A stretch of 64,000 nt of DNA from Mangrovibacterium sp. (GCF_041596335.1 NZ_JBFHIT010000009.1:29458-93457); one strand, 5' to 3'; shown: positions 4,896 through 64,000, counted from the first letter of the stretch. Program-made: numbers and translations. Notes: a model not told the origin generated them from the sequence alone.

Positions 4896-4898
4896 AAC

Positions 4899-4935: not shown

Positions 4936-4955
4936 ATTTTGTTTGAAGCTGAAGG

Positions 4956-9591: not shown

Positions 9592-9628
9592 CCAGTGCGG
9601 AATTAAACGCTGGGGCGCGAAATGAAAT

Positions 9629-10027: not shown

Positions 10028-10045
10028 GTTGCTGATTTTTATGAA

Positions 10046-14302: not shown

Positions 14303-14307
14303 TGAAA

Positions 14308-15012: not shown

Positions 15013-15033
15013 GTTGATCGACGTATTTATGAA

Positions 15034-15528
15034 TTAGCGATAGGTGCGTGGTTTTAGGTGATGAACCAGATCACCCTCTCTGGAAGCAATCGCGCTCCAA
15101 TGCTCGACATTAAAATCGATTACGGCGGTTGAGCATGTTGGAGTATCGCTGTTGAAAAAGCGAACCAGATTATTGATCAAATAATGAATGGTCGGGTTAT
15201 GTCCAAAAACAAAAACAGTTTCAACCTTGTCTTTCAATGTCTGAAGTATGTCAATAAAATCCTGTGTGGTCATTCCATCATACAGGTCTTCTTCCTTCTG
15301 TATTTTATCTTTATCGTATTGGAACGTATTCGCGTAGATTTTGGCCGTGCTAAAAGCCCGCTTTGCCGGACTGGAAATAATTAACCCTGGAGAAATACCC
15401 AGATTTTTCAATTCCAAACTTACTATCTCAGCGTCCTCTCGGCCACTTGGTCTCAGTTTACGATTAAAATCATCTTCGTAGCCATACGGAATTGCTTTAG
15501 CATGCCTAACAATTACTACTCTTTTCAT
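15034..15528 (-). CDS. SixA-type histidine phosphatase
   Basis: RHAKA, SSPAKRA, GHNPT. Confidence 0.85.
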   Translation of the reverse strand: MKRVVIVRHAKAIPYGYEDDFNRKLRPSGREDAEIVSLELKNLGISPGLIISSPAKRAFSTAKIYANTFQYDKDKIQKEEDLYDGMTTQDFIDILQTLKDKVETVFVFGHNPTIHYLINNLVRFFNSDTPTCSTAVIDFNVEHWSAIASREGDLVHHLKPRTYR

Positions 15529-15591
15529 TGGTGCGAATTTTAGAGCTAAATTAAACTAATTTTGGGCGATCGAAACAAGGAATAAGTAAAA

Positions 15592-16092
15592 ATGAAAAGA
15601 ATAGGTTTACTATCAGACACCCATGGCGCAATAAGTTCTAAAACCTTACACTTCTTCGAGAATGTTGATGAAATATGGCATGCCGGAGATATTGGAACGG
15701 TAGAGCTAGCCGATCAACTGATCGCTTTTAAGCCCATCAAGGCAGTCTATGGCAATATTGATAATCACATTGTTCGGAAGATGTTCCCCGAAAAACTTCG
15801 ATTCTTTTGCGAGGAAGTCGATGTGCTGATGACTCACATCGGCGGCTATCCCGGAAAATATCAGCCAACAGTCAGAAACGAGTTCAACCTAAAATCACCA
15901 CGACTCTTTATTTGCGGGCATTCGCACATTTTGAAGGTCGTATTCGATCAAAAATATAACTGCCTACATATCAATCCGGGAGCGGCAGGAAACAAGGGGT
16001 TTCACAATGTTTGTACGGCAATCCGTTTTGTAATTGATGGTACGGAAATTAAGGACCTAGAAGTTCATGAATTTGAAAGAGCTAATTTTTGA
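15592..16092 (+). CDS. YfcE-family metallophosphoesterase
   Basis: SDTH, HAGDIG, GNID, GHSH, NPGAAG. Confidence 0.88.
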   Translation: MKRIGLLSDTHGAISSKTLHFFENVDEIWHAGDIGTVELADQLIAFKPIKAVYGNIDNHIVRKMFPEKLRFFCEEVDVLMTHIGGYPGKYQPTVRNEFNLKSPRLFICGHSHILKVVFDQKYNCLHINPGAAGNKGFHNVCTAIRFVIDGTEIKDLEVHEFERANF

Positions 16093-46011: not shown

Positions 46012-46365
46012 ATGAAAAACCAGTATGAAACCGTTTTCATTGCAACTCCCGTTTTATCTGACGTTCAGATAAAGGAAGCGGTAAGTAAATTCAAGGGCAT
46101 CATCACCGAAAACGGTGGCGAAATTGTCAATGAAGAGAACTGGGGTTTACGCAAGTTAGCTTATCCCATTCAGAAAAAAAGCACTGGCTTCTATCATTTG
46201 TTCGAGTTCAAAGCTGAACCAGAACTGATTGCAAAGCTAGAGCTGCAGTACCGTCGCGACGAACGTATCATTCGATTCCTGACTTTCAAACAGGATAAAT
46301 ATGCTACTGAGTACAGCGCAAAAAGAATCAATAATTTGAAAGCTAAAACTGTAAAGGAGAACTAA
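46012..46365 (+). CDS. rpsF: 30S ribosomal protein bS6
   Basis: [21 protein letters not shown]; C-terminus ...KTVKEN. Confidence 0.97.
46353..46359 (+). promoter_or_regulatory. Shine-Dalgarno sequence for rpsR, embedded in the last rpsF codons
   Basis: AAAGGAG 9 nt upstream of ATG 46369; no such motif before rpsF or rplI. Confidence 0.6.
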
Positions 46366-46368
46366 GCT

Positions 46369-46638
46369 ATGGCAAGTAATCAAGGTGAAATCCGTTACCT
46401 GACCCCCCCGTCGGTTGAAATTAAAAAGAAAAAGTATTGCCGCTTTAAAAAGAACAAGATCAAGTTTGTGGATTATAAAGATCCTGAGTTCTTGAAGAAA
46501 TTCCTGAACGAACAAGGTCGTATTCTTCCACGTCGTATTACAGGTACTTCATTGAAGTATCAACGTAAAGTGGCTAAAGCAGTAAAAAGAGCCCGTCATT
46601 TGGCTTTGCTGCCCTTCGTAACTGATATGTTGAAATAA
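46369..46638 (+). CDS. rpsR: 30S ribosomal protein bS18
   Basis: [28 protein letters not shown]. Confidence 0.97.
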
Positions 46639-46653
46639 GAAAAAGAAAGAACA

Positions 46654-47100
46654 ATGGAAATTATTTTATTACAAGATATTAATAACTTGGGGAGCAAAGA
46701 CGATATCGTTAAAGTTAAAGATGGTTACGGACGTAACTACCTTATTCCTCAAAAACTGGCTATTGTAGCCAACTCAAGTACCAAGAAAGTTCTTGCTGAA
46801 AACATTAAGCAACGTGCACACAAAGAAGCTAAACTGAAAGAAGTAGCTATGGCGTTGGCCGCTCAATTGGAAGGCAAAGAAGTTGTTATCGGTGCAAAAA
46901 CAAGTACTTCAGGTAAAATCTTCGGTTCGGTTAATACCATTCAATTGGCAGAAGCTATCAACAAATTGGGCTTCGAAATCGATCGCAAACAAATCCGTTT
47001 GTCAGAAGACACGATCAAAGAAGTTGGTAAATACACCGCAAAAATCAAACTTCACAAAGAAGTATTGGTTGACTTCAACTTCGAAGTCGTTTCTGAATAA
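46654..47100 (+). CDS. rplI: 50S ribosomal protein bL9
   Basis: VKVKDGYGRNYLIP, GKIFGSV. Confidence 0.97.
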   Translation: MEIILLQDINNLGSKDDIVKVKDGYGRNYLIPQKLAIVANSSTKKVLAENIKQRAHKEAKLKEVAMALAAQLEGKEVVIGAKTSTSGKIFGSVNTIQLAEAINKLGFEIDRKQIRLSEDTIKEVGKYTAKIKLHKEVLVDFNFEVVSE

Positions 47101-47158: not shown

Positions 47159-47196
47159 AAAGCCGTCAGCTTCACACACTGACGGCTTTCTTATTT
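47159..47196 (+). terminator. Intrinsic terminator of rpsF-rpsR-rplI, also the integration target
   Basis: 11-bp stem AAAGCCGTCAG / CTGACGGCTTT, loop CTTCACACA, then CTTATTT. Confidence 0.88.
47168..47196 (+). repeat. attL core direct repeat
   Basis: AGCTTCACACACTGACGGCTTTCTTATTT (29 bp), identical to 56323-56351. Confidence 0.93.
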
Positions 47197-47264
47197 ATAT
47201 ATGACTACATACTTCTGATTATCAAAGACTTGTAGCCTTTTGTTTCTTAAATCGAATGATCAGA

Positions 47265-47305
47265 TATAACCACTGTATATACACGGCGTGAATTTTGTGG
47301 TTATA
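47265..47305. repeat. Probable integrase arm-type sites, left arm
   Basis: TATAACCAC at 47265-47273 and inverted GTGGTTATA at 47297-47305. Confidence 0.65.
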
Positions 47306-47538
47306 GGTTTTGAGTGTTAATAACATATTGGCTCGTGTCGAGGATGTTATTTAGAATCTGTTTAATTAATTTTCGTTTTCTCATATGTAAAATTAATAAA
47401 GAACTACAGGACAGCATGTTAGTGTGTAAAAAGTCAATTATCTTTCCATTTTATCCTCTACACACCCCGCACCGCCCTGTAGACTAATTGTGCGCACAAA
47501 ATAGAGATGTTGTGTTATATGCCTAAATATCAGACAAT

Positions 47539-47781
47539 TTAAACACTCTTATCTTTCATCATCAGGTACCCAGAATTTTTAAGAATTGATTTATATACTT
47601 TTACCAACTGTTCTGGAGTAAAAGATCTGGCCCTTAATAGCCTGTAAAAATGAGAAGTAGATATTTCTGTCTCTTTGACAATTTTCGAAACTGGCACCTG
47701 TGATAGATCCAGTAACTCGGAAAGATCCCGTTGAAGCCTTGCAAGCTTTTTAGAGTCACTACAAATACAGCTCATAATCAT
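47539..47781 (-). CDS. Small HTH (XRE-like) DNA-binding protein, 80 aa
   Basis: VSKIVKETEISTSHFYRLLR HTH; ATG overlaps the RimK-like stop (TAATG). Confidence 0.6.
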   Translation of the reverse strand: MIMSCICSDSKKLARLQRDLSELLDLSQVPVSKIVKETEISTSHFYRLLRARSFTPEQLVKVYKSILKNSGYLMMKDKSV

Positions 47782-48899
47782 TAAACTAAGCGAATGGTTA
47801 AACTTTGACGGATACACATTTTGTCTATTTCAGTCTTATTCCGGTGATACTCGCGTTCTGAGAGTACAACTTTTGATAGACCTTCACCAAAGAGAATATG
47901 AACAGGGCGGCCAACCAATGAAGACAATTCCGCACTTAGAGGATTTGAAAAACCGGATGCTTTCATGTCTGTTGTGTTATTGCTCATGTTGCCGTCCTTG
48001 TGATTGCGCTCACAGTATTCAATTAATGGTGTTGATATGTCAACACCTGTAACCTGCTGAATATGATACCCGTAGTTGCCATTGACTTCTATCACAAAGG
48101 TTTTCCCTTTTTTATCCTTCATAATGTCAACCCCGGCAACCTCAAGACCGCAAACCCTGGCAGCATCAACGCAAATGGTTTTATCTTCTTCTGATAGCTC
48201 AACTTTCCTCCCGGTTCCTCCCTGGCTAATGTTTGCCCGGAGTTCCCCCTCTCTGGCTGTTCGCTCCATTGCTACGATTACTTTTCCGTCAATCACAATG
48301 GCTCTAATATCCTTTGCTCCTGAATCAATAAAATTCTGAAGCAATAGATTTTCTTTTCGATCTGAGAAATTTTTCAAAAACACATTGGTTTGATACTCAT
48401 CATTCAGCGGAAAAACTGTTTTCCCTTGGCTCCCGGTTAAGCCTTTGGCAATTGCAGGCAATCCACCAACCTGCTCAATCATCCATGCCGGATGAATAGC
48501 TCTATCCCCTAGAACCGTTTGAGGAACTCGAATTTTAGCCTGGCTAATCTTCTGCTGAGAGATTAACTTGTCGGCTGCTGTCTTAATTCCGTTGGATGTT
48601 TGGGTACTGAAAATCTTAAGGTTCCTGTTTAGGTGCTCTAATACAGAGCACCCATAAGCTAAATTTATTCCGATACGGGGAATAATCGCATCGTATCCCT
48701 TTGCGTTTAGCCGGATAGGGCGGTCTTCTTGCCCGTATCCATCATAAACACGGTCGTAACCAGCTACTTTATCGGATATCAGTAGATACAAGAAAGCTGG
48801 ATCTTTAACAATCATCTCGTGCCCTCTTTTTTGTCCTTTTAAAACAATATCACGAGTTGCATAACTGCCCGGAGCGGCTGAAAGAATAAGAATTTTCAT
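47781..48899 (-). CDS. RimK-family ATP-grasp (alpha-L-glutamate ligase-like) with a ~72-aa C-terminal extension
   Basis: MKILILS, DAIIPRIG, DKL, VGGLPAIAK, GSQG, LLQNFI, DIRAIV, RANISQGG, VAGVDI, IEVN, TGVDI. Confidence 0.88.
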   Translation of the reverse strand: MKILILSAAPGSYATRDIVLKGQKRGHEMIVKDPAFLYLLISDKVAGYDRVYDGYGQEDRPIRLNAKGYDAIIPRIGINLAYGCSVLEHLNRNLKIFSTQTSNGIKTAADKLISQQKISQAKIRVPQTVLGDRAIHPAWMIEQVGGLPAIAKGLTGSQGKTVFPLNDEYQTNVFLKNFSDRKENLLLQNFIDSGAKDIRAIVIDGKVIVAMERTAREGELRANISQGGTGRKVELSEEDKTICVDAARVCGLEVAGVDIMKDKKGKTFVIEVNGNYGYHIQQVTGVDISTPLIEYCERNHKDGNMSNNTTDMKASGFSNPLSAELSSLVGRPVHILFGEGLSKVVLSEREYHRNKTEIDKMCIRQSLTIRLV

Positions 48900-48902
48900 G
48901 AA

Positions 48903-49661
48903 TTAAAATTTTAATTGTAAAACTTTGGATTGTTCGTCGCTTAGATAACTGATCATACTTACAACTCCTGAATTTGAATTTCTGAACATGCAGTATGCCG
49001 GTTTGTAGTTCGTTATGAAGTAGTTTGGATTCCCGGTAGATTTAGGTAGATCACTGTATTTCCTTTCAGTTCTATACGGGATCATAAGCTGAGAGAACGA
49101 AGCCGGAAAGTCTTCTTTGCAAAAATTACACCCAATATTATTGAGTGAATTAATGGTCGCGCAAAACTTTTGAATGAGAATCAAAACCGTATTTTCCTGC
49201 TCGTTTCTCGTGTAATGAGAATTTGAGTCTACAATCTGGGAAACTAACTCGGACGTAGCTTCAAACGATTCTCCATTAAAAATTGACTTAAATTGATTCT
49301 GCCATCCTGGGAGATGAATAGTTGTTTCTTGAAATGCCTGAACTGCCATTATGATATTTGTGAAATCTGGCAATTCAACCATTTCAATAAGCTTATCAAT
49401 TTTCACGCTGAGAGAATTCATAAAATCAGAATACCGCTCATCCTGTTCAATGTGGAGAACCTGGAAGAAACGCAACAAATCTCTAGTTGCTGCCAGTGTC
49501 GATAAGTCTTTCAATTCAATAGGACTTTTAAACCTCTTTTGCCATTCAGAAGAGAGATGATTTAAAGCTTCAATCAATTCATCCCAACGATTAAGCTCTG
49601 TTTTGATTCTCTCTTCATCTTTCCCGATTAACATCGGTGTAAATTCACTTTTCATTTTCAT
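48903..49661 (-). CDS. Hypothetical protein, 252 aa, mostly helical
   Basis: Long ORF tightly coupled to its neighbours; no recognised motif. Confidence 0.6.
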   Translation of the reverse strand: MKMKSEFTPMLIGKDEERIKTELNRWDELIEALNHLSSEWQKRFKSPIELKDLSTLAATRDLLRFFQVLHIEQDERYSDFMNSLSVKIDKLIEMVELPDFTNIIMAVQAFQETTIHLPGWQNQFKSIFNGESFEATSELVSQIVDSNSHYTRNEQENTVLILIQKFCATINSLNNIGCNFCKEDFPASFSQLMIPYRTERKYSDLPKSTGNPNYFITNYKPAYCMFRNSNSGVVSMISYLSDEQSKVLQLKF

Positions 49662-49815
49662 TACTTTTTGTTGTTAATAAAATATTCTTAAGCCTTCTGT
49701 ATAGAAAGTCGCTTTTGGTTGTATTGAGCATCTTTGTTAGTTGCTCAAAATTTCGCTTCTCTTCCCTTGTCAACCGAAAAGAAACTACTTCGCTCTTTGG
49801 GAATTTTATTGTCAT
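49645..49815 (-). CDS. Ribbon-helix-helix (MobC/CopG-like) small protein
   Basis: MTIKFPKSEVVSFRLTREEKRNFEQLTKMLNTTKSDFL: beta strand followed by two helices. Confidence 0.6.
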   Translation of the reverse strand: MTIKFPKSEVVSFRLTREEKRNFEQLTKMLNTTKSDFLYRRLKNILLTTKSNENEK

Positions 49816-50074
49816 GTTTTTTATTTCCAATGTGAGCAAATAGAGTCAAAACCAAAAGGACAACTTGAAAAATGACTTTTTCACGAATGGCTAAACTGTT
49901 GATTATCAGCGTGTCAAATATTATTGATAAATAGAACAGGAAATTATTTAGAAAGATTCTAATAAAAAGAGGGAGAAGATCTCCCATAATGAAAAAAGCA
50001 CCCTTTTAACAAGAGTGCTTTGATGGATTTTAAAATTTTGAATTATCATGATAATATCTTTCAAAAATCCACTT

Positions 50075-50089
50075 AAAAAAGCGGGGGAC
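50075..50089 (-). terminator. Probable terminator of the replication operon
   Basis: Minus strand AGCG-TCCCC-CGCT followed by TTTTTT, just after the stop at 50094; the stem is short. Confidence 0.5.
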
Positions 50090-50093
50090 GCTG

Positions 50094-50306
50094 TTATTTT
50101 GCGTTGCTCAATTTCTCAAGATCAATCTCAATGAAGGGGAGGTTTTCCTTTAAATTCACCAGATCCATTTCTAGGCCTGCTAATGTTGCTAAATGAGTCA
50201 ATGTTTCCTCACCAGCGTTATTAAAAATTAAGAAATCTTTGGTTTTGCGAATCTCTTCGATATAGATTGCAATAGTTTCTTCTAATAGTAAATCTGATCG
50301 CATCAT
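50094..50306 (-). CDS. Hypothetical protein, 70 aa
   Basis: Directly follows the primase on the same strand. Confidence 0.5.
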   Translation of the reverse strand: MMRSDLLLEETIAIYIEEIRKTKDFLIFNNAGEETLTHLATLAGLEMDLVNLKENLPFIEIDLEKLSNAK

Positions 50307-50310
50307 AATT

Positions 50311-51150
50311 CTAAATTTTATTGATTAATAATTCGTTGAAATCTTTATAATTTGGATATATCATTTCTGCCTGGTTGATCGTGTTCGGGTGTGCGTTTAT
50401 AATTCGTTGAGCGGCTTCTTTACCGGCTGGATCTGTGTCCAGGTAGAGGTTAACCCGGTTGTACTTTTGAAGATCCACCAATAGGGCTTCGTTTATATTG
50501 TTGAGTGAATTGAGAACAATTGTATTGTTTTTTGCTTCGAGAGATCTAAAGTATTCGAGAGCAGATAGGAAGTCCGGCCAACCTTCAAACAGGTTTACCG
50601 ACTTTGTAACTCCTGGAATTGTTGTGATTGCTTTGGGAGAACTGCCACCTTTGAAATATTTATTTCGAAGTTCAAACCCGCCTTTGTCGTTTTTGAATGC
50701 CAGGGCGAAATAATTTTTATCGTTGGCTCGATAATAGGCTTCCTTCAGGTACTTTTCGGCAATTGTGGCCGAAATCTTCCGGGAATTCAGGTATTGAATT
50801 AATGCCCGGTTTTGCAGCGGTTGGAGGTGCTTAATCTCAATTCCAGGATCAACAGGCTGGTCAAAAGAAAAAGATTCGACTGGTGCAGGGGAGAAGCCCG
50901 ATAGGATCAGCAACGCGCCGGCAACCGATACCCCAGACAGGTAGCAAACCAGATCCACCGGGCGGCCACCTTTGCCCGATCCGAAATCATACCAGACATT
51001 TTTAACCCGGTCAATTTTCAAACTCGCTTGGCTCTCGTTGCGGTTTGGTGACTTAAACCAAATATCATGTTTCCTGACTTCTCCACTTTGGTTATAGTGC
51101 AGGGTCAGAATGTGGGTGCACGGGATATTATTTGCTTCGTTGCAATTCAT
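50311..51150 (-). CDS. DNA primase (N-terminal zinc-binding-like domain plus Toprim)
   Basis: WFKSPNRNESQASLK, WYDFGSGKGG, GGFELRN, LFEGWPDFLS, LYLDTDPAG, YKDFNE. Confidence 0.88.
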   Translation of the reverse strand: MNCNEANNIPCTHILTLHYNQSGEVRKHDIWFKSPNRNESQASLKIDRVKNVWYDFGSGKGGRPVDLVCYLSGVSVAGALLILSGFSPAPVESFSFDQPVDPGIEIKHLQPLQNRALIQYLNSRKISATIAEKYLKEAYYRANDKNYFALAFKNDKGGFELRNKYFKGGSSPKAITTIPGVTKSVNLFEGWPDFLSALEYFRSLEAKNNTIVLNSLNNINEALLVDLQKYNRVNLYLDTDPAGKEAAQRIINAHPNTINQAEMIYPNYKDFNELLINKI

Positions 51151-51188
51151 GTTCTTTTCTTTTTTGACTAGCAATTCTGTTTAGTGCT

Positions 51189-51482
51189 CGGACAACTATT
51201 AACGCTCCTCTGTCCGGTTCCATTCCCGGACGGACAGAATAGATAGCCTTGTCCGTCCGATTATCTTACCGGACAACTCTGTCCAGTCTTATTTTTAATT
51301 TATATATATAATAATGATATGTAGCAAGTTACGGCTGTCCGGTTTTGTCCGGGAAGGCAGTTAAGCCTTGACTGCGGCAAATGGCTGTCCGATATGTCCA
51401 GCATGTCCGGGCAGTCCGGGCTGTCCATTATCTGAATATTTGTCCGGTAAAGTCCGCATGTCCGGTTTGTCCGGCTTGTCCA
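51189..51482. repeat. Iteron-like TGTCCG cluster around an AT-rich core (putative replication origin)
   Basis: About 20 (T/A)GTCC(G/A) motifs, many at ~9-bp spacing (e.g. 51386, 51395, 51404, 51413, 51422), with inverted copies at 51189, 51231 and 51269; AT-rich stretch 51289-51320. Confidence 0.7.
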
Positions 51483-52464
51483 GTTCTTCTTTTATAGAAT
51501 TTCCCCAGTGAGGGCTATCCTTTAGCCAATCCGCAACGGTGGACTTTGATTTTCCAACTTTGGCGGCTATTTCTCTAATCGTTAATTGTGGGTTTTGATT
51601 TTTTAGGGAGAATGCCATGATCTTGGGATCATCGGTCGAAATGCTCAGATTGTCAGATTCTGAGCTGGTGCCAATCTCAAAGAACTGGAGAAAATCTCCG
51701 TCTTTATCAATCCCAAATTCTAAAACATTACCGGAGTGATAGACCGGCTCACAGCTTCTTGACGGCTTAACTTGTTTTAAATATCGGTTTGATGATCCTT
51801 TCGAGCTTTTACCGATTGCAAAAACTGAATCGGCAAAGTTTGAGAGATGTTTAGATCCTGAAAGATCGGAAATAGTAATAGGTGAGTTTTCAGCTCTTTT
51901 GGGGGTGTGGGCTAAAACTAAAACACTCAATTCATGCTCTCGTTTTAGTTCAATAAGCTTTCTCATTATATCTAAAGAGGCTTGCTGATCCTGTGTGGTC
52001 TGAGTATTAAGGAAAGTGATATTATCAATAATTAGGATTTTAGCCCTTGTCTCAATAATATCATTTTTGAACTTATGAAAAATCGATTCTAGAAAGCTCA
52101 GTTTTGGATCTTTGTCAAATAGCTCAATGAAATCTATGTTATCGATAAAAAAGTTATCTGAGAATTCATGGATTTTCCCGGTTTTATCATCCTGGTATCT
52201 TTTTTGGAATTGTTTGTCAGATAGCTCAAAGTCATAATAGAGCACTATTTGTGGTTCACATTCATTTAGTAATGAATCAGTAACATTTACACCTTTGCTT
52301 AGGCCATCTCCAGTCTGTATGCTAAATATTGATTTTCCGACTCCAGTATCTGCAAACAATATTGCAACTTCTCCACTGTGCCAAATTGGACCTAATAGAG
52401 AAAGAATATCCGGCTGCTTTTGAGCGTCCTCAATTCTTTGATTTGCGGTTCTTATTCTTTTCAT
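51361..52464 (-). CDS. AAA-family ATPase/helicase (AAA_25-like) with C-terminal HTH
   Basis: Walker A FADTGVGKS, YYDFEL, Walker B IIDNIT, LAHTPK, GSKHLSNFADSVF; TIREIAAKVGKSKSTVADWLK HTH. Confidence 0.85.
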   Translation of the reverse strand: MKRIRTANQRIEDAQKQPDILSLLGPIWHSGEVAILFADTGVGKSIFSIQTGDGLSKGVNVTDSLLNECEPQIVLYYDFELSDKQFQKRYQDDKTGKIHEFSDNFFIDNIDFIELFDKDPKLSFLESIFHKFKNDIIETRAKILIIDNITFLNTQTTQDQQASLDIMRKLIELKREHELSVLVLAHTPKRAENSPITISDLSGSKHLSNFADSVFAIGKSSKGSSNRYLKQVKPSRSCEPVYHSGNVLEFGIDKDGDFLQFFEIGTSSESDNLSISTDDPKIMAFSLKNQNPQLTIREIAAKVGKSKSTVADWLKDSPHWGNSIKEELDKPDKPDMRTLPDKYSDNGQPGLPGHAGHIGQPFAAVKA

Positions 52465-52481
52465 TCGTCCCCCTTACAAGT

Positions 52482-52619
52482 TCATTTATTCTTATTCTGG
52501 TTTCTCTCCCGGATTACCTTCTGAAGCCAGAGTATTCGCTCAGCTCGTTCCTGGCTAATTTCTACCTTGCCGATTCCGGGAAAAGCGGCGGTGTATTTTT
52601 TCTTTTTTTCTGCGCTCAT
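52482..52619 (-). CDS. Unlisted 45-aa basic protein
   Basis: Own translation: MSAEKKKKYTAAFPGIGKVEISQERAERILWLQKVIRERNQNKNK*; fills the gap between xis and the AAA gene. Confidence 0.5.
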   Translation of the reverse strand: MSAEKKKKYTAAFPGIGKVEISQERAERILWLQKVIRERNQNKNK

Positions 52620-52621
52620 GA

Positions 52622-52939
52622 TTATTTGTTTAGAAACGAATAGTCCTGCGGCTGATCCTTTGCAATCACTTTGATTGATTGTATCCAGGCGGCAACCTCT
52701 CCGCGTTTTACGAATAACCTCCGTCCGGGCTGGTAGTATGAAAGTTCGTTGTTGTTGATGGCCTTACGTAGCATGTAGTCTTTGCAGCCAAACTCTTTTT
52801 CAGCCGTTTGCAGGGTTATAAACTGCTCAGGATCTTTAAGAGCTGAGGCGGGTTCTTTACTTAGTGCCTGGTTAATGCACTTTTCTACTATTGGCTTTAC
52901 AAAGGCCTCCAGAGCTTCAAGTATTTTTTCTTCTTTCAT
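52622..52939 (-). CDS. Excisionase-like helix-turn-helix protein
   Basis: FITLQTAEKEFG...LRKAINNNELSYYQPGRRLFVKRGEVAAWI. Confidence 0.75.
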   Translation of the reverse strand: MKEEKILEALEAFVKPIVEKCINQALSKEPASALKDPEQFITLQTAEKEFGCKDYMLRKAINNNELSYYQPGRRLFVKRGEVAAWIQSIKVIAKDQPQDYSFLNK

Positions 52940-52949
52940 GAGCAGGATT

Positions 52950-53111
52950 TTAAAAGTTGGGGATTACTAATCGAATGGCAAAGCGGATTAACTCACTCTG
53001 GCTAACCTGTTCTTTTTCGCAGAACTGTTTTAGCTTCTTTACCTCTTCGGGTGAAGCTTTAAAACCCAAAAGCTTTGTTTTATGGGTCTTCTTTGGGATC
53101 TTGAATGTCAT
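52950..53111 (-). CDS. Unlisted 53-aa ribbon-helix-helix protein
   Basis: Own translation: MTFKIPKKTHKTKLLGFKASPEEVKKLKQFCEKEQVSQSELIRFAIRLVIPNF*. Confidence 0.6.
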   Translation of the reverse strand: MTFKIPKKTHKTKLLGFKASPEEVKKLKQFCEKEQVSQSELIRFAIRLVIPNF

Positions 53112-53186
53112 GATAATGAGTGTTTTAACTTTTATTACTAATAACGTTAAACAAAGGTCATTAACTCAAAAAACGAAATAAAGGAC

Positions 53187-53215
53187 AAAATACAATTTGT
53201 AACAATTTGTATTTT
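53187..53215. promoter_or_regulatory. Near-palindromic operator with tandem ACAATTTGT sites
   Basis: AAAATACAATTTGTAACAATTTGTATTTT; ACAATTTGT at 53192 and 53202. Confidence 0.5.
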
Positions 53216-53307
53216 AGCATTTTGTGGATTTACTATTTTCCTTGACTTTAGTTAAGGATCTATAAGACAGGAATATAAATTCGTTTCAGAAAATGACAAG
53301 ATGTAGG

Positions 53308-54213
53308 TTATTTTTTTAATAGCCAGTCAAAAAAAGTATCGTGATACCTGTTAATATCGTGATATAACGCAATTACTTTTGGGTTCTTACAAACTCTGGC
53401 AATTGTGGTTTTAGAGTGATTGTATTTGGCTGCTAGTTGGGAGTAGGATATATCATTTTGAATGTGGTCTTGATATATTTCAACCAGTTCTTTATCCCAT
53501 ATTCTTTTATGTAGGTGTCTTTCTTCAAACAGATCTCTACTTCTCAACCGGTGATCCTCCCGTGAACTATGTAATTTTCGTTTGAGAGTCGCTGTTTTGA
53601 TATGAGATTCATTAATCCCGGTAATTGCCTTTACCTCTTCTATTGCAGCATCAATAGTTTTGTGATAGAAGCATTTTGAATTGATGTAATCGTAGAAAAA
53701 ACTGTTTAGGGATTCATTGATCGAGCGAATCCTTTTAGCGTACGTATTCAGGAAAATAGAAGAGTTATAGTCTCCAGTTTTTCTTTTGTACTTATTTACT
53801 CGTTTTATAGGAAAGGTGATTTTTACGAGGGAATATCCGGTCAATACAAACTGTTTCAGCTCTGGCGGTAAGTTTTTTCTGCTTTTGTACCACTCAATAG
53901 TTAAATCATCATAATCATTAACTAGCGGCTCAATGCCATCAAGTAACATCATGAAATACATATCTATGATATGACAGATACGGTCTTCTCTCATACTTTC
54001 ATCGGAGTAGATTCTTTCAAACTTGTACTTGCCTAGTTTTCTGGCATTAGATAATGATTTGATGTATTTCTCTGTTTCTTCCCGGGGAATCAGTGGCCAA
54101 ATACGATCCCAATCCACTTTTATAAACTTTGCCAAGTGTGGCTTAAGCGGTAAAATGACAAACCTGGTAGGCCGTTTTTGCGGTTTGTCGGGTAATTTGT
54201 TAATTTTGTCCAT
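53308..54213 (-). CDS. Hypothetical 301-aa protein with C-terminal HTH
   Basis: ISYSQLAAKYNHSKTTIARV HTH at the C-terminus. Confidence 0.6.
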   Translation of the reverse strand: MDKINKLPDKPQKRPTRFVILPLKPHLAKFIKVDWDRIWPLIPREETEKYIKSLSNARKLGKYKFERIYSDESMREDRICHIIDMYFMMLLDGIEPLVNDYDDLTIEWYKSRKNLPPELKQFVLTGYSLVKITFPIKRVNKYKRKTGDYNSSIFLNTYAKRIRSINESLNSFFYDYINSKCFYHKTIDAAIEEVKAITGINESHIKTATLKRKLHSSREDHRLRSRDLFEERHLHKRIWDKELVEIYQDHIQNDISYSQLAAKYNHSKTTIARVCKNPKVIALYHDINRYHDTFFDWLLKK

Positions 54214-54295
54214 GTCTAAATTTTATTTTAGGTGAGAGGCTTGTGATACTTTGGTCGGTGCACAGGCCTTTCTTTATTATTGCAGATTACAATTT

Positions 54296-54646
54296 TTAAT
54301 CAACTTCGTTTTCTTCGTGCAGTTCCCGCTTTAGAGCGTGTTTTACCAGTTGATTTAGGGTAATGCCCTTGGCGGCTGCTACTTGAGCGGCTTTCCGGTG
54401 GAGGTCAACACTAAGCCGAACATTAAAACTCCCTTTGTACGATTTTTCTACCGGCTTTCCTTCTCTTTTGCAGTCCTCAATATGCAGATCCACCATTTCC
54501 TCAAAGGCGGCCTCCAGTTCGTCAACGGTCGTTCCTTCAAAAGTTACCAGGTCGTTTATCCCTTCAACTTTACCAAAGAAAACCCGGTCGTCGGCACTGT
54601 AATTAACTGTGCCCATAAAACCTTTGTACTCCATTACATTTTTCAT
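54296..54646 (-). CDS. hicB: HicB antitoxin
   Basis: MEYKGFMGTVNYS, FFGKVEGINDLVTFEG, YKGSFNVRL RHH. Confidence 0.9.
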   Translation of the reverse strand: MKNVMEYKGFMGTVNYSADDRVFFGKVEGINDLVTFEGTTVDELEAAFEEMVDLHIEDCKREGKPVEKSYKGSFNVRLSVDLHRKAAQVAAAKGITLNQLVKHALKRELHEENEVD

Positions 54647-54891
54647 AGTGCATTCATGTTTTTTAGTTCCTGTTCAATTTGATCCAGCTGGTAGCGTTTT
54701 AAGATGTTGCCCGGATGTGGCTTGTGCAGTTTCATTTTGTGCCCGTTTTCTTCTTTGGCAAAAACAACTCTTGATCCGGCTCCCTGGGCTTGTTTGTAAC
54801 CAAAGTGGGACAACAGGGTAAGCAGCTCGTTGTAAGTAAAATCTTTGGGTTTGCTCTTAAACCGGCTAATCAGCTTTTCAATTTTGCTCAT
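54643..54891 (-). CDS. hicA: HicA toxin
   Basis: DFTYNEL, GAGSRVVF, LHKPHPGNILKRYQ; overlaps the hicB start. Confidence 0.88.
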   Translation of the reverse strand: MSKIEKLISRFKSKPKDFTYNELLTLLSHFGYKQAQGAGSRVVFAKEENGHKMKLHKPHPGNILKRYQLDQIEQELKNMNAL

Positions 54892-54938
54892 AGTACAAAT
54901 ATATAAAAATGCAACTAAATAACAGTCGCAAAAGGTTG

Positions 54939-56174
54939 CTATAATAGTTTTCTGTTCATTTCGTCCAGGTAGCTATCCTCAAAGCTTTTGAGGTAGATTG
55001 TCGTTGTCTTTTCGTTGGTGTGTCCCATTCCTTCCGATATAGCAGCCACCGGAGAACCCAATTGTTTTTGGATAGTTGCCCAACTGTGCCGGGCTACATA
55101 AGTAGTCAACGGCTCAATCCCTAACTCATTCGATAAGTCTTTTAGTTTCCGGTTGGTTTGACGTAGTACAGTTTTAATCCGTTCCTTTTGCTCCTTGGGT
55201 GTTTTATAAATCTTGTCGTTTAATATTGGTAGCAAGTAGTTACCGGCGTAAGGATGTTTTGAAAAATACTTTAGCATATCGCTAACTGGTTCCATAATCT
55301 CAATCGAAAACCGCTGTTTGTTCCGGGTCTTGATCCTGGAATAGATGATCCGGTTTCCGGATAGGTTGTCTTTGGTGAGGTAGGCCATGTCCGTAAAGTT
55401 CATACCACGGGTGTAAAAGCTGAACAGGAAATAAAGCCGGGCATCGTGTAAAGAGGACAGGGGCTTTGTTTCGGCATTCTCAACCAGTCTGATCGTGTCC
55501 AGGCTTACAGCCCGTTTCCTGGTGACGGTTTCCAGCGCGCTTATTTTGTACCCGTTTGGTTTTGTGTTGTTGTGGAACGGATACAGATCGGCTGGTGTAA
55601 TGTCGGCGGCAATGGCTTTATTGTATGTCGCCCGGAGTGTACGCATATACAAAACCATCCCGTTTCCCTTCATTCCCTTCTGGGTGAGGTGTGTCTCATA
55701 ATCTTCCAGAAATGAAAGATCGATGTCGGTAAAGCGAAGTCCGGACACCGGTTTAAAATTCCACAGTGAGTTTTTCACCGTCTTATAAATCCCGGCGTTG
55801 CCGATCTTGTTTTTCTTTTCAAGGCCTTTGATCAACTGGTCAAAAAAAGGATAGACGTAGTTTTGATCTTTGATCTTGAAAAAATACTTTTTGAAGGTCT
55901 CCAGGGTTACCGGAATGTTTCTTTTTTCAAGATCCAGTAAAACACTGTGTGCCTCGGCTTCCCGCTGAATTACAAAAGCATTGATCTGCTTGTACTGCTT
56001 TACTCCGGATGCTGGTTTTATTTGCCCATCGGTGAAATGATCCGGAAAAAACCGTTCGTTAATCTTTAAGTCGATGTAATATTTCACCCGGTGCATGGTT
56101 AAGCGGAGAACAATTTTTCTTTTTCCTCTCGCATCTTTATTAATCGGGTGAAGCATGATTTTTAGTGTTGCCAT
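54939..56174 (-). CDS. int: Site-specific tyrosine integrase (Bacteroidota Arm-DNA-bind / SAM-like / catalytic domains)
   Basis: FLFSFYTRGMNFTDM (R substituted by N), YSRIKT, TTYVARHSWAT, EGMGH, TTIY catalytic Tyr. Confidence 0.93.
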   Translation of the reverse strand: MATLKIMLHPINKDARGKRKIVLRLTMHRVKYYIDLKINERFFPDHFTDGQIKPASGVKQYKQINAFVIQREAEAHSVLLDLEKRNIPVTLETFKKYFFKIKDQNYVYPFFDQLIKGLEKKNKIGNAGIYKTVKNSLWNFKPVSGLRFTDIDLSFLEDYETHLTQKGMKGNGMVLYMRTLRATYNKAIAADITPADLYPFHNNTKPNGYKISALETVTRKRAVSLDTIRLVENAETKPLSSLHDARLYFLFSFYTRGMNFTDMAYLTKDNLSGNRIIYSRIKTRNKQRFSIEIMEPVSDMLKYFSKHPYAGNYLLPILNDKIYKTPKEQKERIKTVLRQTNRKLKDLSNELGIEPLTTYVARHSWATIQKQLGSPVAAISEGMGHTNEKTTTIYLKSFEDSYLDEMNRKLL

Positions 56175-56175
56175 A

Positions 56176-56218
56176 TTATAACCACGTTATAACCACAAAG
56201 GTAAAAAGGTGGTTATAA
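56176..56218. repeat. Probable integrase arm-type sites, right arm, overlapping the int promoter
   Basis: TTATAACCAC at 56176 and 56187, inverted GTGGTTATAA at 56209; minus-strand TACCTTTG (-7 element) at 56196-56203. Confidence 0.7.
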
Positions 56219-56322
56219 TTTGCAATAGTAAACCCTAAAAAATATTGCTGTAAGTATCGTAAAAACAGACTTTTAGTTGTTAATAACTTTTGACCCTTAA
56301 ATGGGTTTTGACCTGTCGTTCT

Positions 56323-56351
56323 AGCTTCACACACTGACGGCTTTCTTATTT
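56323..56351 (+). repeat. attR core direct repeat
   Basis: Identical to 47168-47196 but lacks the 5' arm of the terminator stem. Confidence 0.93.
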
Positions 56352-56451: not shown

Positions 56452-57498
56452 ATGAGCCGAACAATACGAACAGCCCTCGCTTCTTTTGGAATGTCTGGGA
56501 TGGTTTTTCACGGACCATCGTTAAAAGTCAATCCTAATTTTCAGATCAGCAAGATTCTGGAGCGCTCTAAAAATTTGTCAGAGCCCAACTATCCCGAAGC
56601 AACTGTTGTTCGCGATTTCGATGAGCTTATAAGCGATTCGGCGATTGATTTGGTGCTGATTAACACGCCGGATTATCTTCATTACACAATGTGTAAACAG
56701 GCTCTTGAGGCCGGCAAGCATGTGGTCGTTGAGAAACCCTTTACCCAAACCATGGAACAAGCCAACGACTTAATTGAATTGGCAAAGAAAAAAGGGTTGG
56801 TGCTCACTGTTTATCAGAACAGGCGTTGGGATGGCGATTTTATGACTGTGAAAAAAATCTTGGAGGAAAAACAATTGGGGCGTCTGGTTGAGTTCGAGTC
56901 ACATTTCGACCGTTATCGCAATTTCATACAACCAAATACATGGAAAGAAGAAGGGATTGACCGGGTAGGGGTATTGTACAACCTGGGGTCGCACATGGTC
57001 GATCAGGTGCTGAATTTGTTTGGAATGCCCGGTGAGGTGACGGCGCACCTGGCGAAACTGCGAACGGGTGGTGTGGTGCCCGATTATTATGACATTCGCC
57101 TACAGTACAATGGTTTTGCGGCCTTGCTTAAAAGCTCGTACCTGGTTCGGGAGCCGGGCCCACGGTATTCATTGCATGGTACGCTGGGGTCTTTTCAGAA
57201 ATGGGGAATCGATCCGCAGGAAGAAGCTCTAAAGGCCGGGAAACTGCCAAATGAGTTTGGCTGGGGTGAAGAACCCGAAGAAGCATGGGGATTTTTACAT
57301 ACAGAGAACGAAGGTCAGCTTGTTCAAAAGCGACTGAAAACGATCGCTGGTAATTATGCCGTTTTTTACGAAAATGTCTATGACGCGATTGTGAATGGCG
57401 CTGATTTGTGGGTTAAGCCTGAAGAAAGTCGTGATTGTTTGAAAGTTCTCGAAGCTTGTTTGCTGAGTAATGCCGAAAAGCGAACGATTAAATTGTAG
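56452..57498 (+). CDS. Gfo/Idh/MocA-family oxidoreductase (YdgJ-like)
   Basis: FGMSG, KHVVVEKPF, YQNRRWDGDF, YNLGSHMVDQ. Confidence 0.9.
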   Translation: MSRTIRTALASFGMSGMVFHGPSLKVNPNFQISKILERSKNLSEPNYPEATVVRDFDELISDSAIDLVLINTPDYLHYTMCKQALEAGKHVVVEKPFTQTMEQANDLIELAKKKGLVLTVYQNRRWDGDFMTVKKILEEKQLGRLVEFESHFDRYRNFIQPNTWKEEGIDRVGVLYNLGSHMVDQVLNLFGMPGEVTAHLAKLRTGGVVPDYYDIRLQYNGFAALLKSSYLVREPGPRYSLHGTLGSFQKWGIDPQEEALKAGKLPNEFGWGEEPEEAWGFLHTENEGQLVQKRLKTIAGNYAVFYENVYDAIVNGADLWVKPEESRDCLKVLEACLLSNAEKRTIKL

Positions 57499-60972: not shown

Positions 60973-63900
60973 ATGGCTAAAATACTGGGACTTGACTTAG
61001 GCACCAACAGCATCGGCTGGGCAGTGGTGGACGCTACAATGAAAGATGGACAGGTTGAACGTTACTTATCGATTTCTGATTCAGGAGTTCGGATTTTTCC
61101 CGAAGGCGTTGAACCAAACACAATCGGGCAAGGCGATAAAGAACAGTCGAAAAATGCAACAAGGAGAGAACATCGACAAATGCGTCGTCAGTTTTATCGC
61201 AAGAAGTTGAGAAAAGTGAAATTGCTTGAGGCTCTGGTTAAACTGAAAATGTGTCCCTTGTCTGTCGATGGCCTTAAGGGATGGAGTAAATGGGAAAAGT
61301 CTCAGAAAACCAATGGGCAACAATTTCCATCGGAGCCGGATTTTGTTGAATGGCTTAAACTTAATCCATACGAGTTACGTGCCAAAGCGTTAGATGAACA
61401 GCTTAGTATGCAGGAACTAGGCCGCATTTTTTATCATTTCATACAACGCCGAGGATTTTTAAGTAGTCGAAAGGGGAGCGATGATGGAGCGATATACAAA
61501 GGCAAGGAAAATATGTCGGGGATTGATAGTACCCGTGTGCTGATGGACGGACAAACACTTGGAAAAGCGCTACATGACATATCATATAAGCCTGGTGAAA
61601 AATACCACAACAAAATAGACAAAGATGGGAAAGCCTTGAGGTTGCGTGCCCGATATACCCAACGGGACATGTATATTGACGAATTTCAGAGAATTTGGGA
61701 AAAACAAGCCGCTCGATTAGACCTAGACCGGAGAGTAATGCCTGTGCGGAAAATCCGATTTCTGAAAGGTAGTTTGGAAAGTCCCCGCAACCAGCATAAG
61801 CTGGAAAAGTACAAGGAAAAATATGGCGAGAATAACCTCTTTATCGAGGACAATAAAGTGACAAGTATTGCTGAAATTCCTTTGAAAAAATATTTTGCCG
61901 GTGAAATTGAAGAGTTGGATGGACAATTGAAGTTTAAAAGTAACGAGAGTTTGTTGTTTTGGCAACGGCCACTTCGATCTCAGAAGAACTTGCTGGACAA
62001 CTGTCGTTTCGAGAACAACCGGCCTGTGCTAATGACAAACGGACAATACCGGATGAAAAATGGGGAATTGGTGCTCCGTAGCAAAAAGCCTTGCCCTTTG
62101 TCTCACCCCGAGTTTGAACTGTTCAGGGCCTATCAGTTCATTAATAACATCCGGTACGGAAAAGGACAGAAGCTGACCTTGGAACAGCGACAACAAGTAT
62201 TGGAACTGATGAACGGCAGAGATGGTAATTTCAATTTTGAAGAAATACCGAAGGCATTGAAGTTGACTTATGAGAAGTTCAACTACGACAATGACCAGAA
62301 AATAGCAGGGAACACTACAATAAAAAAACTAACTCCGCTTTTTCCCGCTAGCATTTGGGAACGCAACTATGAGGTTATTTGGCATTGCTTCTATTTTTAT
62401 GATGATAATGAGCGATTGTTTGCAAAACTGAAAAAGGATTTTCAATTAAAAGTTGACGACCCTGATAAAATTTCGAAAATCCGATTGAAAGACGGTTATT
62501 CGAATGTTTCGTTGAAAGCAATCCGCAATATCAATCCGTTTTTGGAAAAAGGCTATTTGTACGCTGACTCTGTTGTATTAGGGGGCGTAAAAAACGCTTT
62601 TGGATATCGTTGGGGAAATTTTGAAATGTACCAGGATGAAATTGAGCGGGCTGTATGTCAGATATTGCGGGAAGACAATAAAGAAGGTGAAGGCATCGAA
62701 AAAATAAAAGAATGGTTAGCCTCTCCGGTGAATAGTTACGGTTTCTCGAAAAAAGATCCGGCGTTTTCGCAATTATATCATCACAGTCAGGAAATTTTGA
62801 AGAAAGAACGCCTGGCTTTAGTGCCTGAGCTGGAAAATTTACGGAACCCGATTGTTCAACAAGCACTACAGGAGATGCGCCGTTTAGTGAATTCGTTGTT
62901 GAAAAAATATCGGGAAAAAGAGCCTGACTTTTCGTTTGACCGGATTCATGTGGAAATGGGGCGCGACCTAAAAAACAACAAAACTAAGCGCCAAGATTTA
63001 ACGCGTAAGATCAGGGATAATGAGAAAAAGAATGATGAGGCCCGGAAGCGACTGGAAGAATTTGGATTGCGACCGACTCGGGATAACTTATTGCGCTATT
63101 TACTGTACGATGAAATTCAAATGCATGTGTCTGGGCCCGTTCTCTGCCCTTATACCGGCAAGGTGATTAGCATGGCCGACCTAATTGGCGGAGGCAATAC
63201 CGTACAAATTGAACACATGGTTCCTTACAGCGTATCGCTCGACGATAGTTTCGGAAACAAAACTCTTTGTGAAGCCAACTTTAATCGGATGAAAGGCGAG
63301 AAAACCCCTTATGAGTTTTACCTGACTAACCCGGATTATAAACTTTGGGGCATCAATAAATATCCAGATTTGGAGGATGGCTGGAAAGAAATTTCGGAAC
63401 GGGCTTTCAAGGTGTTACCCTACCCAAAAGCTAAACGTTTTACTGTGAAGAAGAAGATTGAAAAAACTGATTTTATTGAACGCCAGCTAAACGACACACG
63501 ATACATTAGTCGCAAAGCGGTTGAATCATTATCGGCCATCTGTAGCGATGTGCGCATGTTGCCAGGACAGGTAACCGCCGAGTTGCGTCACCTCTGGGGA
63601 ATCAACAATATTCTGAACCCTGTTCTGGGAATTGAAAACTTTAAAGCCGAAGTGAGGGGTGACGAACGGTTGACCTATTATGTGGTTACTGATGAAGATA
63701 ACCGGGTATTGGCAATGCAGCGAAAATCAAACGACCGTCCGGAAACTGGCGCTGAACAACTGGTGCTGACCGGAGCTGTAAATAAGGGAGCTTTTTCGTC
63801 GAAATATTTACGTATGAAAATAGATGCACCTAATTTGAAAGATGGTGAATACTGGGCTGTGGTGAATGTTTCGGCACCACATTCATTTCAATCGGTATTT

Positions 63901-64000
63901 GCTGAAAAACCCGATGGGGATGAGCAGCGGCTTGTATTTAAAGGTCGGGTTGAAAAACAGTTTTTTACAAACGATACGGTTGGCAAACGGATTAAGGCAG
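60973..64000 (+). CDS. cas9: Type II-C CRISPR nuclease Cas9, 3'-truncated by the window (1009 aa visible)
   Basis: Own translation, no stop: MAKILGLDLGTNSIGWAVV (RuvC-I), Arg-rich bridge helix, LRNPIV, IHVEMGRD (RuvC-II), CPYTG...IEHMVP...NKTLC...N..KG (HNH), RQLNDTRYI, TAELRHLWG. Confidence 0.96.
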   Translation, partial: MAKILGLDLGTNSIGWAVVDATMKDGQVERYLSISDSGVRIFPEGVEPNTIGQGDKEQSKNATRREHRQMRRQFYRKKLRKVKLLEALVKLKMCPLSVDGLKGWSKWEKSQKTNGQQFPSEPDFVEWLKLNPYELRAKALDEQLSMQELGRIFYHFIQRRGFLSSRKGSDDGAIYKGKENMSGIDSTRVLMDGQTLGKALHDISYKPGEKYHNKIDKDGKALRLRARYTQRDMYIDEFQRIWEKQAARLDLDRRVMPVRKIRFLKGSLESPRNQHKLEKYKEKYGENNLFIEDNKVTSIAEIPLKKYFAGEIEELDGQLKFKSNESLLFWQRPLRSQKNLLDNCRFENNRPVLMTNGQYRMKNGELVLRSKKPCPLSHPEFELFRAYQFINNIRYGKGQKLTLEQRQQVLELMNGRDGNFNFEEIPKALKLTYEKFNYDNDQKIAGNTTIKKLTPLFPASIWERNYEVIWHCFYFYDDNERLFAKLKKDFQLKVDDPDKISKIRLKDGYSNVSLKAIRNINPFLEKGYLYADSVVLGGVKNAFGYRWGNFEMYQDEIERAVCQILREDNKEGEGIEKIKEWLASPVNSYGFSKKDPAFSQLYHHSQEILKKERLALVPELENLRNPIVQQALQEMRRLVNSLLKKYREKEPDFSFDRIHVEMGRDLKNNKTKRQDLTRKIRDNEKKNDEARKRLEEFGLRPTRDNLLRYLLYDEIQMHVSGPVLCPYTGKVISMADLIGGGNTVQIEHMVPYSVSLDDSFGNKTLCEANFNRMKGEKTPYEFYLTNPDYKLWGINKYPDLEDGWKEISERAFKVLPYPKAKRFTVKKKIEKTDFIERQLNDTRYISRKAVESLSAICSDVRMLPGQVTAELRHLWGINNILNPVLGIENFKAEVRGDERLTYYVVTDEDNRVLAMQRKSNDRPETGAEQLVLTGAVNKGAFSSKYLRMKIDAPNLKDGEYWAVVNVSAPHSFQSVFAEKPDGDEQRLVFKGRVEKQFFTNDTVGKRIKA

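Follow-up and report, generated by a model that had tools for sequence, protein, structure and literature searches.

An intact relaxase-less integrative element of Mangrovibacterium sp. belongs to a recurrent family of compact Prolixibacteraceae elements and may be a phage satellite

Introduction

How a small integrative element moves between cells when it encodes neither a recognizable relaxase nor a recognizable virion protein is the question raised by a 9,155-bp element in the genome of Mangrovibacterium sp. The element lies in a stretch of 64,000 nt (GCF_041596335.1 NZ_JBFHIT010000009.1:29458-93457), hereafter the window, and its positions are given in window coordinates. According to the original prediction, made from the sequence, it could be either a satellite resembling the phage-inducible chromosomal islands (PICIs) or an element mobilized in trans. 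Bacteroidota phages and mobilizable elements shape gut and marine communities; phage satellites, well characterized in Proteobacteria and Firmicutes, are to our knowledge almost unknown in this phylum.

Here we show that the element is an intact integrated unit that has recombination sites of its own as well as a plausible origin, and that it belongs to a recurrent family of 7-15 kb elements. Among the possible lifestyles we favor that of a phage satellite dependent on a tailed, siphovirus-type helper phage, to which we give an even chance; a tailed-phage helper is favored because the family has phage-related genes in the slot used elsewhere for mobilization (Mob) genes, as well as phage-type regulators.

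Results

An intact integrated unit behind the rpsF-rpsR-rplI operon

As predicted, the 9,155-bp element is delimited by perfect direct repeats of 29 nt, AGCTTCACACACTGACGGCTTTCTTATTT (attL and attR in Table 1; the length is the start-to-start distance), and the odds of a perfect 29-mer pair arising by chance within 11.5 kb are negligible. The attL copy lies directly 3' of rplI (46654-47100; L9 domains), the last gene of the rpsF-rpsR-rplI (S6-S18-L9) operon. Together with the preceding six bases, it makes a hairpin, GCCGTCAG...CTGACGGC, followed by the T-run TTTCTTATTT, and thus integration rebuilds the operon terminator. No tRNA gene was found in the window.

The nonamer TATAACCAC has five matches in the window, at a chance expectation of 0.25, and all of them are at the element ends, two inverted copies in the attL arm and three between the int start and attR. 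These nonamers look like arm-type sites of the integrase, and the attR arm is kept upstream of a 77%-identical integrase in a related locus, L014 (related loci are cited by our numbers). The confinement of the sites to both ends supports a functional att/int system. Every gene of the element is intact, and all are on the minus strand; the proposed order of int, hicAB, a regulator, a ribbon-helix-helix (RHH) gene, xis, a small open reading frame (ORF), helicase, ori, primase, and cargo agrees with the profile matches (Table 1).

A recurrent family of compact elements in Prolixibacteraceae

The same compact architecture recurs at 7-15 kb in many genomes, with differing integrases and att sites. 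The element's own clade, with helicases 47-93% and primases 43-74% identical to those of the window, is represented in Sunxiuqinia, Draconibacterium, and Mariniphaga genomes and in metagenome contigs. The order of genes in the clade is int, an accessory slot, a regulator (often a divergently transcribed cI-like HTH_3 gene, as in L003, L004, L008, L013, and L180), an HTH_17 gene, the helicase, phased iterons, the primase, and several small ORFs. Behind the primase comes a slot with small ORFs, an RHH gene, and a gene for a RimK ligase; in four relatives, it also contains a siphophage-type tape-measure gene. We found no description of this Bacteroidota element family in the literature searched.

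A census was made of the loci with at least 2.5 kb downstream of the primase, split at 40% primase identity to the window. At or above this threshold (n = 9), Mob was found in no locus, RimK in four, and a tape-measure gene in three; below it (n = 36), the respective counts were six, one, and zero.

In L002, whose helicase is 93% identical to that of the window, ~11 kb lie between 16-nt terminal repeats resembling a tRNA T-arm, and the unit ends with RimK followed by an 881-aa PF10145 tape-measure protein (7949-10594). In L013, from the complete genome of Draconibacterium halophilum (CP048409.1, ~341,037-355,918), the 14.9 kb between repeats at tRNA-Arg contain an 811-aa tape-measure gene (13410-15845) and two small genes of unassigned function. 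A 951-aa tape-measure gene is carried by L008 (14009-16864), and region 3213-4973 of the Logan contig L001 matches phrog_37298 (5e-83) and tape-measure PHROGs. No other structural gene (capsid, terminase) was detected in the tape-measure-bearing loci; the comparison with PHROGs of ten L008 and L013 proteins, either small or encoded after the tape measure, yielded nothing, and that of further family proteins with Pfam yielded nothing useful.

The clade tape-measure proteins are homologous to those of Bacteroidota siphophages, with at most 39% identity to deposited phages. Among the elements they are 48-70% identical, the exception being the L008 copy at only 33-40%, without a BLAST match to that of L002. 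Judging by these identities, the gene has long been resident in the family.

This conservation also bears on the possibility that the elements spread independently of any helper, through vesicles, generalized transduction, or natural uptake, as proposed for tycheposons, or that they persist mainly vertically, stabilized by hicAB. Such a life would fit the self-contained integration and replication modules, the toxin-antitoxin pair, and the window copy, in which no helper-specific gene is recognizable; moreover, concatemers resembling integrative mobile elements encapsidated in virions (VEIMEs) were also found in seawater vesicle fractions (10.1101/2022.07.26.501625). However, the tape-measure gene has been kept and has diverged with the backbone, being more similar among the elements than to deposited phages, which speaks for a specific interaction of the family with phages, and the regulators resemble those of temperate phages. 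We therefore regard helper-independent spread as improbable.

Att-bounded Prolixibacteraceae elements of 11-15 kb have a full-length siphophage-type tape measure as the sole recognizable structural gene, operonic with RimK or small ORFs. In L004 (2038-13625), tRNA-Leu(caa) is the site of two tandem integrase-bearing units, enclosed by 16-nt repeats at a distance of 11.76 kb, a layout suggesting that related elements accreted one behind the other at a single att site. L003 occupies the same tRNA-Leu/ECF-sigma locus, and L180 shares the ECF-sigma/FecR flank, with the tRNA not seen. The 16-nt terminal overlap of L002 was considered as proof of a circle and rejected, as an att repeat longer than the assembler k-mer explains it equally well.

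The RimK cassette

The last four genes of the element, taken for cargo in the original prediction, proved to be a conserved cassette recurring in relatives. In L001, the same four genes are followed by the tape-measure gene with overlapping stop and start, and in L008, homologs of the 252-, 64-, and 92-aa proteins lie between the primase and the tape-measure gene (that of the 252-aa protein, 32% identical, follows the primase and a 60-aa ORF). RimK is also found downstream of the primase in L002, L021, L180, L181, L189, L221, and L226. Homologs of the 64-aa RHH protein are present in L001 (75%), L002, and L008; an RHH gene immediately precedes RimK in L021 and L181, and an 81-aa ORF intervenes in L226. 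As the same genes recur in relatives, the cassette is family equipment and not random cargo.

The window copy is a RimK-terminal family member without a tape-measure gene. Such variants are also seen in L180, L021/L181, and L226, and hence the form in the window is not a one-off deletion. This is relevant to whether the element could be a decaying, immobile leftover, be it of a larger element or a prophage, as the lack of structural genes might suggest, together with the absence of the tape-measure gene that closer relatives have (the similarity to L001 ends at 47566, just before the L001 tape-measure start). The perfect 29-bp repeats, the paired arm sites at both ends, and the intactness of every ORF speak against decay, as do the recurrence of the same compact architecture in many genomes with different integrases and att sites and the independent recurrence of RimK-terminal variants, and we consider a remnant very unlikely.

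The 252-aa protein, the second of the cassette, appeared to be orphan cargo in a word-indexed homolog search; this view was rejected, since the full HMMER scan of 1.84 billion sequences gave 35 representative relatives. Their lengths are 223-320 aa, except for one protein of 489 aa, one 77-aa fragment, and one protein of 1,480 aa (25-residue match), and their alignment contains no conserved His or Tyr motif. The AlphaFold model of the 252-aa protein is confident (pLDDT 93.6); Foldseek found no significant match to it in PDB (best E 1.5) or BFVD (best E 0.57). An exact-protein look-up with the 250-aa form yielded no other contig.

As a guess, the RimK cassette could add glutamates to a helper or host protein. 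In Escherichia coli, the RimK-family enzyme glutamylates ribosomal protein S6, and the RimK gene of the window lies in an element directly behind the S6-S18-L9 operon (46012-47100). As the host S6 ends with ...KTVKEN and not with Glu-Glu, this neighborhood is probably a coincidence.

The replication module and the putative origin

Judging by domains and repeats, the element has its own replication module and an adjacent iteron origin. In the putative origin, TGTCCGG-type iterons, mostly phased at 9 bp, form two blocks around an AT-rich spacer (~51285-51330), with eight of the 17 exact TGTCCGG matches of the window lying in 264 bp. Phased iterons occur at the equivalent place in L003, L008, and L013, and the origin region is 78.5% identical to that of L002. 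The last ~40 codons of the helicase gene (51361-51480) are encoded by the iterons and form a low-complexity tail, DKPDKPD...GQPGLPGHAGHIGQP, varying among relatives with their iterons. The helicase family is large (>4,700 homologs, mostly from Bacteroidota). The primase probably starts with the ATG at 51150, since its homologs align from residue 9. A strong intrinsic-terminator-like hairpin at 50021-49995, 3' of the 70-aa ORF, closes the replication unit and sets it apart from the last four genes.

Integrase-side genes and regulators

The hicAB pair matches phrog_8887 and phrog_9151 and occupies the integrase-proximal accessory slot, filled in relatives by other accessory genes (SocA/Panacea, Xre-RES, RhuM). 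The 301-aa protein has two homologs, one of which adjoins int in the Maribellus element L014, and it may be considered a candidate regulator tied to the integrase lineage of the window. Its structure model is of moderate quality (pLDDT 67.8), and a Foldseek comparison with PDB gave no significant match, only the C-terminal helix-turn-helix (HTH) resembling DNA-binding domains, those of DeoR/SorC. The earlier label of an HTH regulator is backed by this weak C-terminal HTH alone. In L008 and L013, homologs of the 53-aa RHH protein are encoded immediately upstream of the helicase, and an HTH_17 gene is at the equivalent position in L004, L008, L010, and L013. No divergently transcribed repressor was found in the window element; cI-like HTH_3 genes are present in relatives.

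Locus L014 of Maribellus sediminis (WXUA01000002.1, 8716-14024) combines the 77%-identical integrase and the homolog of the 301-aa protein with ORFs of 53 and 104 aa at the positions of the RHH and xis genes of the window, the match being positional only. Its replication protein is of the VapE/DUF5906 type, not AAA_25 plus Toprim, and it has no relaxase either. As judged from its gene content, L014 shows module shuffling between the integration and replication units.

Table 1. Features of the integrative element in window coordinates. E-values and scores are those of profile matches; the att cores and the origin are given without strand.
Feature	Position	Strand	Observations
attL core, 29 bp	47168-47196		Supplies the T-run and the 3' half of the hairpin of the rplI operon terminator
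Two inverted TATAACCAC putative arm-type sites, attL arm	47265-47273, 47297-47305	+, -	70-110 bp inside attL
92-aa protein, last cassette gene	47539-47817	-	Weak HTH; homologs in L001 (65%) and L008
Four-gene cassette shared with L001	47566-49866	-	82.5% DNA identity over 2,305 bp
RimK-family ATP-grasp alpha-L-glutamate ligase, 372 aa	47781-48899	-	RimK 6e-37, Rimk_N 1.5e-12, TIGR00768 172 bits (cut-off 143.4)
252-aa protein	48903-49661	-	Small family, 35 representatives; fold without known match
64-aa RHH protein, first cassette gene	49645-49839	-	Weak NikA-like match, 2e-3
70-aa ORF	50094-50306	-	Downstream of primase
Toprim_2 DNA primase	50311-51174	-	Toprim_2 8e-12; phrog_47 primase
Putative replication origin, iteron region	51205-51490		Overlaps the 3' end of the helicase gene
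AAA_25/DnaB_C ATPase, putative initiator-helicase, 367 aa	51361-52464	-	AAA_25 1.3e-16, DnaB_C 4e-7, C-terminal HTH_23/24; phrog_19 DnaB-like helicase
45-aa ORF	52482-52619	-	No family match
HTH_17 protein, excisionase/AlpA-like, 105 aa	52622-52939	-	HTH_17 2e-4, TIGR01764 'excise' 1.6e-4, both below cut-offs
53-aa RHH protein	52950-53111	-	RHH_1 2e-5; CopG/Arc-like repressor PHROGs
301-aa protein, candidate regulator	53308-54213	-	Weak C-terminal HTH only
hicB, antitoxin of hicAB pair	54296-54646	-	HicB 1e-16
hicA, toxin of hicAB pair	54643-54891	-	HicA_toxin 7e-9
Tyrosine integrase (int), 411 aa	54939-56174	-	Phage_int_SAM_5 1.1e-20, Phage_integrase 9e-10, weak Arm-DNA-bind_5, phrog_1 1e-20
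Three TATAACCAC putative arm-type sites between int start and attR	56177, 56188, 56209	+, +, -	Within 56177-56217
attR core, 29 bp	56323-56351		Host Gfo/Idh/MocA oxidoreductase gene (56452-57498) next

Conjugative mobilization or a helper phage

The search of the element with Pfam, NCBIfam, PHROGs, and PADLOC revealed no relaxase, coupling protein, type IV secretion system, capsid, terminase, or tail gene, in line with the original prediction. Mob_Pre, Relaxase, and MobA had no match in the element, BLAST with three Mob proteins found none in the window locus, and the structure models of the 252- and 301-aa proteins, two of the four ORFs named in the original prediction for a check of this kind, contain no apparent relaxase fold. 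Neither prophage genes (capsid, terminase, portal, tail, lysis) nor their remnants were found in the element.

The backbone, nevertheless, has relatives in conjugatively mobilized elements. A circular 10-kb Bacteroides fragilis record carries, along with cfxA, int, and xis, a gene for an AAA ATPase that shares 38.6% identity with the window protein, a DUF6371 primase-like gene, and a 'mobilization protein', and is thus Tn4555-like; gut metagenome loci comprise int, a VapE-like gene, a Toprim_2 primase 37-38% identical to that of the window, and a Mob_Pre relaxase 118-211 bp downstream of the latter. These relatives would fit a relaxase-less integrative mobilizable element (IME), similar to the mobilizable genomic islands (MGIs), for which a conjugative element of the host (of the conjugative transposon type, MPF_B) would supply the relaxase, coupling protein, and pore in trans. 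The element would then have an unrecognized oriT, and an RHH protein might act as a relaxosome accessory factor: both RHH proteins have weak matches (~2e-3) to NikA, a relaxosome accessory family. Relaxase-less IMEs do exist in other phyla; they have been described for Firmicutes and Proteobacteria, whereas Bacteroidota are not reported among them in the review of PMC5704250. Moreover, the NikA-like matches are below the gathering score, and the same RHH proteins fit phage repressor PHROGs better; no oriT was identified, the window contains no conjugative genes, Mob was found in none of the nine clade loci with enough downstream DNA, and what several clade loci have in its place are cI-like repressors and a tape-measure gene of phage type. 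Taking both sides into account, we consider mobilization in trans unlikely. The choice posed by the original prediction is narrowed to the advantage of the phage option, given the tape-measure genes and cI-like repressors of the clade, its lack of Mob, and the occurrence of the window cassette next to a tape-measure gene in L001.

The reading as a phage satellite has several points to contend with as well. A tail gene is absent from the window copy, and no trace of a tape-measure gene was found in its attL arm. No terS, ppi, cpm, rpp, capsid-remodeling, or helper-interference gene was recognizable with Pfam, NCBIfam, and PHROGs, a weak TerS-like match (1.3e-3) on the helicase HTH being the only trace of a packaging gene; no cos or pac packaging site was found in the element, and the window showed no helper phage. 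Neither IMG/VR nor the JGI metagenomes contained an exact match to the 29-mer att core, and they thus yielded neither an empty attB nor an attP junction. Single-protein scans of IMG/VR with the window helicase and primase gave no relative, and that with the L002 tape-measure protein gave no close one; a scan with the helicase alignment gave only 36-43% identical relatives, many of them in 40-70 kb phage contigs. The kinship of the helicase and primase with mobilizable elements and the NikA-like matches described above have to be counted on the same side. Since the helicase core is common to mobilizable elements and phage contigs, the replication module alone is no indicator of lifestyle.

The Tn4555-like Mob is itself missed by Pfam and was identified via annotated plasmid homologs and a Mob_Pre match on a 27-28% identical relative. 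Thus, the absence of a relaxase family among the Pfam matches listed for 80 genome loci, in which 90 ORFs downstream of the helicase were scanned, is a weak negative.

Some records related to these backbones deserve mention in their own right. L095 (CP103138.1), a 10,057-bp circular 'plasmid' of B. fragilis classified by MOB-suite as non-mobilizable, has the gene set of the Tn4555-like cfxA mobilizable transposon and may be an excised circular form deposited as a plasmid. L006 and L007 (MT836838.1 and MT839118.1), UNVERIFIED GenBank entries for 'Bacteriophage sp.' from human feces, have the xis-AAA-DUF6371 backbone of a Tn4555-like element, and L006 also has a Mob gene and type I restriction-modification cargo; judging from their genes, among which there are no phage genes, both are probably mislabeled.

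The remainder of the window was considered as a source of a helper prophage or a conjugative cluster, and none is apparent, the rest looking like housekeeping DNA. The ORF at 60973-64000, running off the window end, starts with MAKILGLDLGTNSIGWAVV, a sequence resembling the RuvC motif at the N-terminus of a Cas9; hence, the host may carry a type II CRISPR system, with spacers possibly pointing to helper phages.

Discussion

A proposed life cycle and its implications

If the element is a satellite of a tailed phage, its anatomy suggests the following scheme. The tyrosine integrase would have inserted the element into a 29-bp attB overlapping the rpsF-rpsR-rplI terminator, probably using the TATAACCAC arm-type sites in both arms, and excision would probably require the HTH_17 Xis/AlpA-like protein, the likely regulators being the 301-aa HTH protein and the small RHH proteins. 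Replication of the resulting 9,155-bp circle would start at the iteron origin and use the Toprim primase and the AAA_25/DnaB-like ATPase, the C-terminal HTH of which probably recognizes the iterons. By analogy with the relatives, transfer would most likely proceed by piracy of a tailed siphovirus-type helper.

More tentatively, and with rather less than even confidence, we propose that the clade is an undescribed satellite family of Bacteroidota (Prolixibacteraceae), with an NBU/Tn4555-like backbone in which the Mob module was swapped for phage-interaction genes, so that the helper would have switched from a conjugative element to a tailed phage. The phage-interaction genes would possibly be the RimK cassette and, in many members, a tape-measure protein of their own. 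The family could then, again as a tentative suggestion, represent a second independent case of tape-measure-encoding satellites.

Should the family be phage-borne, one int-xis-helicase-primase chassis would serve both conjugative mobilization and phage piracy. It would constitute a new clade whose only retained structural gene is the tape measure, which points to manipulation of the helper at the tail level and not at the capsid level, and with the recurrent RimK ligase there would be a new effector candidate in the conflicts between satellite, helper, and host. A tape-measure-bearing member is available in a complete genome, that of D. halophilum, the source strain of which is presumably cultured. 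If mobilization occurs in trans instead, these would be the first relaxase-less IMEs reported in Bacteroidota, as far as the review of PMC5704250 shows.

Comparison with known systems

Compared with MGIs of Vibrio and Firmicutes (PMC5704250), the element is similar in having an integrase and, putatively, a recombination directionality factor, in lacking a relaxase, and in its presumed dependence on a helper. The MGIs differ in having an oriT that mimics that of the helper integrative and conjugative element, and usually have no helicase-primase-origin module of their own.

VEIMEs are likewise small and carry tyrosine integrases, excisionases, AlpA-type regulators, primase/helicases, and few structural genes, and marine VEIMEs have been reported to be integrated in hosts including Flavobacteria (10.1101/2022.07.26.501625). 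However, they are defined by concatemers from virions, whereas the window element is known from its genes alone and is compared here by description.

With the EPIP satellites of Mycolicibacterium (PMC12822802), relatives of the element (L002, L008, and L013) share the tape-measure protein, and according to this 2025 preprint tape-measure genes are otherwise essentially unknown in satellites. EPIPs differ in possessing a serine integrase and in encoding, besides a terminase small subunit, a scaffold, head-tail adaptors, and a capsid protein, and they infect Actinobacteria; the window copy differs from them also in having no tape measure.

The parallels with NBU-type elements and PICIs drawn in the original prediction hold. 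Like Tn4555 and NBU1/NBU2, the element has a tyrosine integrase and an excisionase-like HTH protein, is of similar size, and integrates site-specifically at gene 3' ends; its ATPase is homologous to that of the Tn4555-like record, and its Toprim_2 primase to those of the int-VapE-primase-Mob_Pre loci. However, in Tn4555 and NBU the Mob relaxase, classed as MobP (PMC5704250), comes right after the primase-like gene, whereas in the window this place is taken by the RHH, 252-aa, RimK, and 92-aa genes, and the element has no resistance cargo.

The SaPI origin consists of iterons flanking an AT-rich spacer. The PICIs (SaPIs and Gram-negative PICIs) and the window element have in common this type of origin, an initiator-helicase, and a primase, as well as a terminal integrase, small regulators, an HTH protein that is a candidate for an Xis/AlpA-like factor, accessory or toxin-antitoxin genes beside int, the lack of structural genes, and a size near 10 kb, the element, at 9,155 bp, being slightly small for islands of ~10-15 kb. 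It differs from them in having no terS, ppi, cpm, or rpp-type genes, in the order helicase-ori-primase, in the combination of AAA_25 and Toprim_2 replication proteins, in its Bacteroidota host, and in having relatives with a tape-measure gene, which PICIs do not carry. Having neither the packaging genes of PICIs nor the relaxase of NBU/Tn4555, the element belongs to neither family. As to its way of life, it works, in an evenly balanced judgment, like a PICI-type satellite.

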